Origin: Gammaproteobacteria bacterium
GTDB taxonomy: Bacteria; Pseudomonadota; Gammaproteobacteria; Steroidobacterales; Steroidobacteraceae
NCBI GenBank assembly: GCA_031431655.1
Contig: JANPDV010000311.1
Span: forward strand, 177-64,176
Reading direction: 5' to 3'
DNA: 64,000 nucleotides
The first letter of the stretch is position 1. Every line of letters starts with the position of its first letter. The notes under the pieces were generated by a model, which had not been told where the DNA came from, did no database searches, and saw nothing but the letters and a program-made list of their open reading frames with translations. Shown piece by piece: positions 31,940 through 34,900 of this stretch. A program made the translations under genes and the position numbers.

Positions 31940-34900
31940 TCAGACGTCGAGGTTCGCGACGGCGAGAGCATTCTTTTCGATGAACTCGCGCCGGGGCTCG
32001 ACCTGGTCGCCCATCAGCGTAGTGAAGATCTCGTCGGCCGCGAAGGCGTCTTCGATTCGTACTTGCAACAATCGCCGTGTTTCGGGGTTTATTGTTGTAT
32101 CCCAGAGCTGTTCGGGGTTCATTTCGCCCAGGCCCTTGTAGCGCTGGATGCTCTGGCCCTTCTTGGCCTGGGCAAACAGCCAGTCGATCGCGGCCTTGAA
32201 TGAGCCGACCGGTTCGCGCTCATTGCCGCGCGCGATGTAGGCGCCCTCGCCGATCAGCCCACCCAGAGTCTTGCCGAGGTCGGCGATGCGGCGGTACTCG
32301 GCGGAGTCGAAGAATTCGCGCGTCAGGTACTTCGTCGTGGAAGTGCCGTGCTCAGTCTTCTGGATCTGCAGGCGCGCCACCTGGCCTTCGACGGACTGGC
32401 GCAGCGTGATCTGGTAGCTGCGGGTGCCGTCGTCGAGCGCGTTCAGGCGGGTATTGAGATCCCTCGCCCAGTCGCGCATCCAGTCGGTGCGCTCGTAGTC
32501 GGTGGAGTGCAGCTCCGGCATGAACACCAGCTGGTCGAGCAGGCGCTCGTCGTAGCGGCGCGACCAGCGGCGCACGATGGACTGCACGTCCATGTACTTG
32601 TGCGCGAGAGCCTCGAAGCCGGCGCCGCGCAGCGGAGGAGCTTCGGCGTTGACGTACAGCGCAGCGTCGTCGAGCGCGTCACTGAGCAGGATGGCGTTCA
32701 GCTCCGTATCGCCCTTGACGTACATCTCCTGCTTGCCGCGCTTCACCTTGTAGAGCGGGGGCTGGGCGATGTAGATGTGGCCGCGCTCGATCAGCATCGG
32801 CAGCTGCCGGTACAGGAACGTCAGCAGCAGCGTTCGTATGTGACTGCCGTCGACGTCAGCGTCCGTGTTGTGACAACAGATGCCGCCCAGCCCGGCGATG
32901 AAGTTCTCGTCGGTGTCGACGGAGAAGTCGTACACCCAGCCTGAGCTGGCGGCAACTTCATCGATCGCCGTGATCGGCAGCGCCATCAGGTCACCGTCGA
33001 TTGCACGGAAGCGCCGATTGAGGGCGGGTTGTCGCACGCTGTCGAGATTGCGGGCGCGCAGCGTTTCCGCACCGGGGTGATCGCGCCACACGGGTTCCAG
33101 CTTCACGAGATCCTCGGCAGCACACACGGCAATGTTCCAGTGCGGATGCCGCGTGATGCAGGGCTGGCCGCGAACCTCGCGTGCCTTGCCGTCCGGCTGG
33201 ATCTCGCTGATCGAGGCGACGATGCCGAGCGAGCTCAGGCAGTACATCAGGCCGCTCGCGAGGTCATAGGACGACGTCGCGAAACCGATCCTCGAGTCAG
33301 TGACGGTTCCATCACCCAGCAGATAGCCACGCAGGAACGCGAGCCGCAGCGGCTCGGCCACGTTGAACACGAGATCGGGAATCTGCTTGGTGGTGGACTC
33401 CGTGCCGCGGAAGCCGAACAACCCCTGCCAGGCCAGGGCCGCAACGCGATTGATCAGCTTCAGTTCGGCCGCGCGACTCGTCTTTGGAACCATCAGCGGC
33501 GAGAGGCCGAACACGCGCCGCAGTCGCTCTGCCATTTCCCCTGCGAAGCGCTGATTGCTGGCCCCGATCGAGAAGCGCAGACCATTGCGGTCGGAACAGG
33601 AGCCCTCGGCAACGTAGAAACCCAGCAGCACCATCAGGTCTTCATCGACCTTCAGATACCTGGACAGGCTGCGATTGGCGTAGTGCTCCGGCGAGAGCTG
33701 CAGATCCTCGCGCTCACCCATCCAGTCCAGATCCTCCGCGGTCAACGTTGAAAGCCGGACGCGGTCACGCACGACATTGCGCCCGGAGCCGCTGTACTGC
33801 TGCTCCCAGATCCGATCGAGTCGACTGCTGACGATGGCGACCTGCGGCAGGATTTCCGCTGGCTCGGCGCCGACCGCGCGCAGGTACGCCTCGAAATGCG
33901 GCACGGTCGGCCGCGATACGCCCTTCTCCCACGAGTAGAACGTGCATGGCTGCTGGATGCCGATGGCGTCGCAGAGCTCGCGGTTGCTGACGCCCGCGGC
34001 ACGGCGGCGCTGCGCGAGCTCGCGACCCAGCGTCGAGGGGACATCGACGCGCGGCGCCGTGTGATGCGGGTCGTCGGCGTGGCGGCGCTGAACCCGGGAC
34101 TTGAACCAGTCTTCCACTGCGGGACCGCGAATCCAGATCTGACGCGCGGCCGCCGCGTCCAGCCACAGGCTGCGCAGCAGGTCGAATTCACGGGGCGCGG
34201 TGACAGGCAGTTTGAGATGGCGCGGCGCGACGAGGTGGTCACCGAGGCGCAGCTGATCGCCGCGCCTCAGCTTGATCGCCCCGTCCTCATGTATGAAGAC
34301 ACTGTGGCTGGAAGTCACGCGGACTGTGCGCCCATACGCGCCGCGGACGCGGAACAGCTTTTCGTCAAGCGGGTGGCGAATGACCGCCTTGATCGGCCGG
34401 AAGCGCACGTCCTTGCGATCGACGCCGAAGCACAGCACTTCGCCAAGGTCGCCGCCGCGCAGGCGTTCGACCCCATCCTCGCTGCTGAACGTCGCCGTCG
34501 TGCGCCGGGCGCTGATTGCAGCATCGATGAACTCGCCAATGCGCACCAGGCGCGTGCCACGCAGATCGGTGCGCACGAACACATGATCGTCGCCATCGAC
34601 GCTCATGATGACGATGCGGTGATACCGCAGCTTGTCGATGTCGAAGTCATCGCGCCCGATGCCGCAGCCGAGCGCCGTGATCAGCGTGCCGACTTCGGCG
34701 GAGCCGAGCATCTTGTCGAAGCGCGCGCGTTCGACGTTGAGGATCTTGCCCTTGAGCGGCAGGATGGCCTGGGTGCGGCGGTCGCGGCCCTGCTTGGCCG
34801 AACCGCCGGCGGAATCACCTTCGACGATGAAGATCTCGGACAGCGCCGGGTCTTTCTCCTGGCAGTCGGCGAGCTTGCCGGGCAGGCCCGCAATGTCCAG

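Follow-up and report, generated by a model that had tools for sequence, protein, structure and literature searches.

The Ssp GyrB intein of Synechocystis PCC 6803 is a class 1 intein, which in its native form carries a LAGLIDADG endonuclease and which interrupts the Toprim domain of DNA gyrase subunit B (GyrB). It is widely used in protein engineering (PMC3620165), and GyrB inteins are also listed for Proteobacteria in published surveys (PMC4760082, PMC4071816). Relatives of the Ssp type start with Cys1 and are inserted at EGDSAGG↓CFSGDT (the arrow marks the insertion point), about 70 residues upstream of the IM↓TDADVDG site described here; this position was read from proteins matching the N-terminal part of the Ssp GyrB intein. 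For the IM↓TDADVDG site no explicit description was found in the literature searched, in which surveys count GyrB inteins.

The closest structurally matched system is PI-TkoII/PI-PkoII (PDB 2cw7), an archaeal DNA polymerase intein with Cys1 chemistry. It likewise carries extra DNA-binding-like domains (PMC8966425).

Interrupted gyrB gene and its insert

In the window (the whole stretch of DNA that was analyzed, 64 kb), the gyrB gene is located in the order dnaA-dnaN-recF-gyrB and was found as a single ORF of 1386 aa. A previous sequence-only reading had placed a 579-aa intein at 32867-34603, directly before the DxDxD motif of Toprim, and this was confirmed to the base: the in-frame insert sits between ...RYHRIVIM and TDADVDGSH, and its excision gives a GyrB of 807 aa. 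The rejoined extein halves make up a full GyrB (NF011501, 1269 bits), and the exteins are 82-88% identical to those of Steroidobacteraceae or Nevskiaceae-like Gammaproteobacteria. An Rfam scan of the whole 64-kb window gave no matches. The following features were assigned:

31940..36100, minus strand: gyrB precursor ORF, 1386 aa plus stop, comprising N-extein, intein and C-extein
34604..36100, minus strand: N-extein, GyrB aa 1-499, with ATPase, transducer and first half of Toprim, ending ...RYHRIVIM
32867..34603, minus strand: intein, 579 aa, precursor aa 500-1078
34601..34603, minus strand: Ser1 codon AGC, precursor aa 500, putative N-terminal splicing nucleophile
34199..34603, minus strand: Hint N-terminal lobe, intein aa 1-135, holding block A and block B (T97-S-S-H100)
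33668..34198, minus strand: helical accessory region between Hint-N and endonuclease, intein aa 136-312, confidently modeled as helical
33854..34030, minus strand: XRE-type helix-turn-helix (HTH), intein aa 192-250, Pfam HTH_31
32999..33667, minus strand: LAGLIDADG homing endonuclease domain and the helices after it, intein aa 313-535, assigned by Pfam and the PI-PkoII alignment
33605-33607, minus strand: codon of E333, acidic residue of LAGLIDADG motif 1
33311-33313, minus strand: codon of D431, acidic residue of LAGLIDADG motif 2
32867..32998, minus strand: Hint C-terminal lobe, intein aa 536-579, with blocks F/G, ending His578-Asn579
32867..32869, minus strand: Asn579 codon, precursor aa 1078
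32864..32866, minus strand: Thr+1 codon ACG, first C-extein residue, putative transesterification nucleophile
31940..32866, minus strand: C-extein, GyrB aa 1079-1386 plus stop, with the remainder of Toprim, the GyrB insert domain and the C-terminal domain

Thr+1 doubles as the T of the Toprim motif TDADVDG.

The Hint and LAGLIDADG similarity expected from the sequence-only reading was found in the gyrB ORF with the Pfam models Intein_splicing (4.7e-12) and LAGLIDADG_3 (3.4e-15), both over their cut-offs, and the NCBIfam models intein_Nterm and intein_Cterm exceeded theirs as well. The proposed splicing blocks (A, B, F, G) could be recognized, with TSSH at intein aa 97-100 and VYDFSV...GGICCHN, a set of motifs that chance would not produce, and in an alignment of 35 sequences T97 and H100 of block B are invariant. 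The acidic residues at the ends of both LAGLIDADG helices, to which that reading had also drawn attention, are kept (LLGFYVAE333G and FLRGYLLGD431G). These motifs align with LLGYYVSEG and FLEGYFIGDG of PI-PkoII and are conserved among the GyrB inteins at the DxDxD site.

The AlphaFold model of the intein (pLDDT 91.6, pTM 0.88) had PI-TkoII as its top Foldseek match (E 2.7e-29, TM 0.59-0.63), followed by the TliVMA, PI-PfuI, PhoVMA and PI-SceI inteins, and the mini-intein structures 5o9i, 6rpq and 4e2t were superposed on it with an rmsd of about 2 Å over about 130 columns. Foldseek also matched I-DmoI, I-Tsp061I and I-OnuI; according to model and matches, the endonuclease domain shows the alpha-beta-beta-alpha-beta-beta-alpha fold twice. 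Among solved structures, PI-TkoII/PI-PkoII is the best match by sequence, too (E 1.7e-31); the alignment covers both Hint lobes and both LAGLIDADG motifs, with the catalytic E...D pair in register. It differs in host protein and in domain of life, and its region between Hint-N and endonuclease is unalignable in sequence, whereas the window intein has the XRE-type HTH there (HTH_31 with 30.1 bits, the cut-off being 27, and a weak match to the XRE-family protein 3f6w). This accessory domain was absent from the sequence-only reading.

Ser1, the TxxH of block B, His-Asn followed by Thr+1 and the Hint fold correspond to class 1, as does an in-frame insert at a conserved host site for which uninterrupted alleles exist. 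A class 2 intein, which has no nucleophile at residue 1, is ruled out by Ser1, a class 3 intein with the WCT triad by block F (VYDFSV) lacking Cys, and a bacterial intein-like (BIL) domain by Thr+1 and the essential, conserved host GyrB. Very probably, the Toprim domain of gyrB harbors a canonical class 1 intein in which a LAGLIDADG homing endonuclease is nested, accompanied by an XRE-type HTH.

Inteins at the IM↓TDADVDG site

A single scan of species-representative genomes revealed 111 relatives, mostly in Gamma- and Betaproteobacteria. The site-matched homologues belong chiefly to Steroidobacteraceae and Burkholderiales; the rest are scattered over many bacterial phyla and the haloarchaea. 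The intein is not rare, since more than 110 species genomes have a homologue at the exact site; the earlier impression that GyrB inteins are uncommon in proteobacteria thus found no support. The same applies to their supposed home in mycobacteria, which are known for GyrA inteins and not for GyrB inteins; NCBIfam holds a dedicated model for the former (NF038098, "intein-containing DNA gyrase subunit A").

The insertion point matches the (I/V)(I/L)M↓TDADVDG allele exactly, and all homologues with a visible junction read ...M↓SVD/A... and ...N↓(T/S)DADVDG. In all 80 genome loci with flanking extein DNA the intein adjoins both exteins in frame; identity was 53-65% over residues 1-579 in 77 of these loci, the remaining three matches being truncated. 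The full-length copies (503-582 aa) are all open and start with Ser, encoded by AGY (78 of 78), and end with HN in 74 and KN in four cases. At position +1, an ACN codon (Thr) is found in the 76 genome copies in which the codon was read completely; a few proteins in the databases have Ser instead. The Ser1/Thr+1 pair, which had been singled out as a less common combination, is therefore present as stated and, not being peculiar to the window copy, is a family-wide property at this site. Insertion point, Ser1, Thr/Ser+1, terminal Asn and the Hint-HTH-LAGLIDADG-Hint layout are shared with the window intein, whose sequence is divergent. The closest intein sampled is 65% identical, with none higher among the sampled relatives, and therefore no recent donor is known. 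A scan of IMG/VR gave only distant generic intein/LAGLIDADG matches (local identity ≤38%) and no relatives on viral contigs.

The haloarchaeal members probably match the allele that Soucy et al. 2014 (PMC4071816) call "gyrB"; accessions listed there include Allochromatium vinosum YP_003443943.1 and Halarchaeum WP_021780646.1. The window intein does not belong to the Ssp type: the Ssp-type site is uninterrupted in the window GyrB (aa 427), and no close sequence likeness between the two types was detectable. It is a clean example of a family that already occupies this site in many genomes and not a discovery. The family has apparently never been studied experimentally. In NCBI, relatives are named "LAGLIDADG family homing endonuclease", "helix-turn-helix domain-containing protein" or "DNA gyrase subunit B".

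Predicted splicing and homing, selection and alternatives

The insert is a real and probably active intein of class 1 that contains a homing endonuclease. The following course of splicing and DNA cleavage, and the part of the HTH in it, are inferred. The intein splits Toprim after the beta-strand ...IVIM and before the Mg2+-binding TDADVDG, and in the 1386-aa precursor the Toprim site would not work until splicing. Ser1, aided by Thr97 and His100 of block B, would undergo an N-O acyl shift, Thr+1 would next attack the Ser1 ester, and Asn579 together with His578 would cyclise and free the intein, after which an O-N shift would yield the normal IM-TD peptide bond of the 807-aa GyrB. The freed 579-aa protein is a predicted site-specific endonuclease, expected to cleave gyrB alleles that lack the intein across their ...ATCATG↓ACCGACGCTGACGTCGAC... 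junction; the HTH domain may contribute extra DNA contacts. Repair off the occupied allele would then copy the intein in (homing).

Median dN/dS values of 0.08 for Hint and 0.14 each for the HTH region and the endonuclease (46-47 pairs) show that all three parts are under purifying selection. Intein and extein identity are weakly correlated (Spearman 0.25): some hosts with 91-95% identical exteins have inteins that are only 55-66% identical, and the opposite pattern occurs too. The survey of related gyrB genes for empty and occupied sites that had been suggested along with the sequence-only reading gave 115 empty and five occupied sites among the 120 closest GyrBs. One empty allele (P0125/L081) encodes an uninterrupted 807-aa GyrB with 99% protein identity to the spliced GyrB, and its site reads ...CGCATCGTCATCATG↓ACCGACGCTGACGTCGACGGC.... 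Purifying selection, the weak intein-host correlation and this 99% identical empty relative fit an ongoing homing cycle; selection on endonuclease and HTH would also fit a host-beneficial, non-homing role.

In 150-nt windows, the DNA identity of the spliced gyrB to the empty allele is 97% at the site compared to a mean of 93%, and the 69 nt upstream of the site are identical. This site-proximal excess fails multiple testing, and because the mild rise falls into the most conserved part of GyrB, no clear co-conversion tract can be claimed. A direct repeat at the intein ends was rejected: the 17-nt BLAST overlap reflects the likeness of GAC/GGC-rich codons (SVDGDD versus DADVDG) and was taken as chance; SVDGDDHV has the form that is usual for block A.

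The lack of a clear co-conversion tract and of a known close donor (best 65% identical) would suit an intein that splices while its endonuclease is dead, i.e., a vertically inherited passenger kept only since loss of splicing would kill gyrase, and decayed endonucleases are common in natural inteins (PMC8966425, PMC4071816). This is rather unlikely, as E333 and D431 are kept here and family-wide, the dN/dS of the endonuclease is similar to that of the splicing domain, no mini-intein derivatives occur among the 78 copies, and the patchy distribution does not follow the host phylogeny. Much less likely still is a domesticated or conditional intein, in which the host would benefit from regulated splicing or from the excised protein with its HTH, e.g., through adjustment of the gyrase supply or through a DNA-binding regulator, and the element would not be purely selfish. 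The purifying selection on the HTH region and the location at the catalytic metal site, where splicing would gate activity, are in line with it, and conditional splicing is documented in other replication-protein inteins (PMC6195587). However, endonuclease inteins are known to use HTH-like accessory domains for recognizing DNA (PMC8966425). The intein is present in only about 4% of the closest GyrBs, and a 99% identical host lives without it; the Ser1/Thr+1 pair also lacks the cysteine redox switch of known conditional inteins.

That the insert is a chimera from assembly or binning, or a permanent non-splicing insertion domain of GyrB, is scarcely credible: although the source is apparently a metagenome-type contig, the same in-frame layout was found in 80 independent assemblies, including the isolate Macromonas bipunctata DSM 12705, the GC3 of the insert (0.81) is near that of the host (0.86), and every splicing residue is conserved. 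The insert divides the strand-DxDxD unit of Toprim, and going by the established biochemistry of this domain, it would be non-functional with the 579 residues retained.

Related Ser1 inteins and significance

Inteins with the Ser1 "SVD..." start are also found in TopA, phosphoglucomutase and FEN-1-like nucleases. They are 27-32% identical to the window intein over nearly the full length and, like it, begin with SVD(G/Y) and finish with C(C/A)HN, but are far more distant than the GyrB copies and sit in other host genes, which implies other target DNA for the endonuclease. Pfam scans of five such inteins outside GyrB detected LAGLIDADG in five and HTH in three; the HTH is present in the scanned copies from GyrB, TopA and phosphoglucomutase. 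In TopA, a type IA topoisomerase, the equivalent Toprim position is occupied (...FLA↓...↓TDPDREGE), so that the strand↓TDxDxxG junction is used in type IIA GyrB (IM↓TDADVDG) and in TopA (LA↓TDPDREGE) alike; phosphoglucomutase (A↓SHNP) and a FEN-1-like nuclease are likewise interrupted at catalytic sites. It is possible, though we put it forward only tentatively, that this lineage moved between structurally equivalent spots of unrelated enzymes. If the XRE-type HTH permits retargeting, the lineage would be a natural model for the spread of inteins to new hosts, and if such site-hopping is true, an intein family with non-cysteine nucleophiles and a natural empty target (L081) would be available for engineering.

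The current understanding of inteins is unchanged by the window intein. For the annotation, the gene should be treated as a single gyrB with an intein inside; in the databases, many relatives are split or mis-named as LAGLIDADG family homing endonucleases or helix-turn-helix domain-containing proteins. The Ser1/Thr+1 chemistry is less common and redox-insensitive and thus of interest to protein engineers. Furthermore, the window gene and L081, occupied and empty with 99% identical exteins, represent a natural substrate pair for splicing and homing.

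Position and architecture of the gyrB intein

In the sequence-only reading, gyrB was proposed to carry an intein directly before the DxDxD motif of the Toprim domain. This core reading is right, and the proposed boundaries match exactly: the first residue, a serine, is residue 500 of the precursor (codon 34601-34603) and the last, an asparagine, is residue 1078 (codon 32867-32869). The intein comprises 579 aa, and GyrB without it 807 aa. Due to its neighbors recF, dnaN and dnaA, the gene is the origin-region gyrB. The GC3 of the insert (0.81) is near that of the exteins, the flanking GyrB halves (0.86). 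An Rfam scan of the whole 64-kb window (1-64000) gave no family at or above its gathering score.

Precursor and intein regions
31940..36100, minus strand: gyrB precursor ORF, 1386 aa, both ends ordinary GyrB
Intein aa 1-135: Hint-N
Intein aa 136-312: helical accessory region between Hint-N and endonuclease
Intein aa 192-250: XRE-type HTH of five helices, inside the accessory region
Intein aa 313-535: endonuclease and trailing helices
Intein aa 536-579: Hint-C

The extein flanks are matched by the Pfam models HATPase_c, DNA_gyraseB, a split Toprim, GyrB_insert and DNA_gyraseB_C. For the insert, similarity to Hint and LAGLIDADG models was found with Intein_splicing (4.7e-12) and LAGLIDADG_3 (3.4e-15), accompanied by HTH_31 (5.9e-7, 30.1 bits with a cut-off of 27), and the NCBIfam N-terminal and C-terminal intein splicing models both scored above cut-off.

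Among solved proteins, the best sequence match is to PI-PkoII (PI-TkoII; 2cw7; E 1.7e-31), an archaeal intein endonuclease. The alignment takes in the Hint lobes at both ends and the two LAGLIDADG motifs, which pair with LLGYYVSEGY and FLEGYFIGDG of PI-PkoII. An AlphaFold model with 35 family members as input (pLDDT 91.6, pTM 0.88) has PI-TkoII (E 2.7e-29), the TliVMA intein, PI-PfuI, the PhoVMA intein and PI-SceI as top structural matches. Its Hint part superposes with mini-inteins at ~2 Å, and its middle is matched by free-standing LAGLIDADG enzymes. Since HTH-like accessory domains linked to DNA recognition are described for PI-TkoII and the TliVMA intein (PMC8966425), the accessory HTH is a variant of a known module.

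The class-1 catalytic set is complete, with Ser1, Thr97 and His100 in block B, His578-Asn579 and Thr+1, the first C-extein residue. The acidic endonuclease residues E333 and D431 are present. The insert is very likely a splicing-competent intein, namely a large one of class 1 with a predicted LAGLIDADG homing endonuclease, which is probably still active. Directly before the terminal His-Asn, Cys-Cys is located at aa 576-577 (nt 32873-32878), as in most family members; others carry CV, AV, AA or CA, and the pair is evidently dispensable.

The intein family at the DxDxD site

The expectation that GyrB inteins are uncommon in proteobacteria was not borne out, as 111 genomes with a relative were detected in a scan with one genome per species and published surveys agree: 33 GyrB inteins are known from four phyla, Proteobacteria included (PMC4760082), and a 'gyrB' intein allele is common to haloarchaea and bacteria, e.g., the gammaproteobacterium Allochromatium (PMC4071816). 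The intein-only query against 5.8 billion proteins resulted in 179 matches, and all 120 listed are GyrB or GyrB fragments (best 62% identical). Hosts named among these 120 are Steroidobacteraceae, Rubrivivax, Thiorhodospira, Planctomycetota, Elusimicrobia, Gemmatimonadota, Myxococcota, Actinobacteria, Chloroflexi, Cyanobacteria (Planktothrix) and haloarchaea, the latter also with the insertion at the DxDxD site. Wherever junctions are visible in the matches, M precedes SV(D/A) at the N-terminal and N precedes (T/S)DADVDG at the C-terminal side. A library of protein clusters at 50% identity contains 130 with a match at E<=1e-30.

At 80 fetched loci, including the isolate Macromonas bipunctata DSM 12705, the intein lies in frame against the N- and C-exteins at the same point wherever extein DNA is present. 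Across these loci, intein identity is 53-65%. Each of the 78 full-length copies is an uninterrupted reading frame (503-582 aa) that starts with Ser; 74 end with HN and 4 with KN. Their Ser1 codon is always AGC or AGT and never TCN, which fits a single origin and continuous selection on Ser1.

In some relatives from long-read MAGs (loci L071, 6001-7732; L048; L078), the intein length is indivisible by three or the exteins contain stops. These irregularities are probable sequencing frameshifts, for which reason database gene calls of such inteins are often truncated or split (e.g., protein P0022).

Further intein sites and distant relatives

The N-terminal segment of the GyrB mini-intein from Synechocystis (Ssp), used as query, matched GyrB fragments (including P0244-P0251) in which Cys1 follows right after EGDSAGG (VEGDSAGG, then CFSGDT). 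This site is at the other metal-binding motif of Toprim, ~70 residues upstream of the DxDxD site, and is uninterrupted in the window GyrB (aa 427-439, about nt 34784-34822). Inteins thus occupy no fewer than two sites in GyrB, each of them at a catalytic motif of Toprim. In contrast to the Ssp type with Cys1, the window intein is of the DxDxD-site type with Ser1, and the two are unrelated. The literature search yielded no paper that explicitly describes the DxDxD GyrB intein site. Planktothrix has matches to both types (P0248 and P0112), so that two inteins may coexist in some gyrB genes of cyanobacteria.

Outside GyrB, identity falls to 27-32% for the nearest full-length relatives, which start with SVD(G/Y) and end with C(C/A)HN.

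Inteins in other enzymes
P0292, P0296, P0371: TopA (type IA topoisomerase), between FLA and TDPDREGE
P0297, P0316, P0334, P0335: phosphoglucomutase, between A and SHNP, active site
P0293: FEN-1/XPG-like nuclease

A Pfam scan of five distant relatives revealed LAGLIDADG in all five and HTH in three (two TopA, one phosphoglucomutase). The TopA site, a Toprim TDxDxxG junction, is equivalent to the GyrB DxDxD site. These insertion points hint that one intein lineage may have hopped between hosts at similar catalytic-site contexts. P0282, P0294 and P0338 (553-579 aa) align with the intein over its whole length at ~32% identity and have no exteins. Instead of the terminal His-Asn they have GGLA, GGFL and GGLV, followed by other sequence, and may represent free-standing or decayed derivatives.

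Occupied and empty alleles

The survey of related gyrB genes revealed both states of the site: among the 120 GyrBs most similar to the spliced protein, 5 contain the intein and 115 are empty. The closest, P0125, is uninterrupted (807 aa) and differs in 10 residues; it is encoded on contig JANMLX010000497.1 (locus L081) in the same dnaN-recF-gyrB order as in the window. Across the insertion site, CGCATCGTCATCATG is directly followed by ACCGACGCTGACGTCGACGGC in L081, whereas in the window the intein separates ATG from ACGGACGCT. The L081 junction is a natural empty site. Near it, DNA identity to the window is raised only slightly.

Of the intein-less close GyrBs, 98 have Thr or Ser as the would-be +1 residue, 15 have Val (IM-V-DADVDG) and 2 have Cys; this variation corresponds to the Thr+1 codon 32864-32866 of the window (proteins P0128, P0133, P0167, P0216). 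Since Val cannot be a splicing nucleophile, entry of the intein into Val+1 alleles would require co-conversion of the +1 codon, and these alleles may be naturally resistant targets.

Just downstream of gyrB, ~2.1 kb of the window (29529-31634), with a 602-aa ORF without Pfam match (29645..31453, plus strand), are missing from L081 and replaced by ~750 bp (5506-6255) with an ABM-domain gene. The sequence to either side aligns at 87-90%. Besides the intein, the two genomes differ here by a second insertion or replacement.

Pairwise dN/dS (Nei-Gojobori, 46-47 moderately diverged pairs) resulted in medians of 0.08 for Hint, 0.14 for the accessory/HTH region and 0.14 for the endonuclease, so all three are kept functional. 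Intein and extein similarity correlate weakly (Spearman 0.25): in some host pairs the exteins are 91-95% identical, yet the inteins 55-66%, and in others exteins of ~45-55% accompany inteins of ~58-70%. The window exteins are closest to Steroidobacteraceae/Nevskiaceae MAGs (N-extein up to 88%), and the intein is about equally far (55-65%) from Steroidobacteraceae and Betaproteobacteria copies. Selection, uncoupling from the host, patchy occupancy and the empty allele together fit the signs expected of a homing cycle of gain, spread and loss.

The window intein adds a divergent member to a family that is widespread and visible in databases; it does not represent a new kind of element. Its main practical value lies in the correct annotation and in a natural pair of occupied and empty alleles for experiments.
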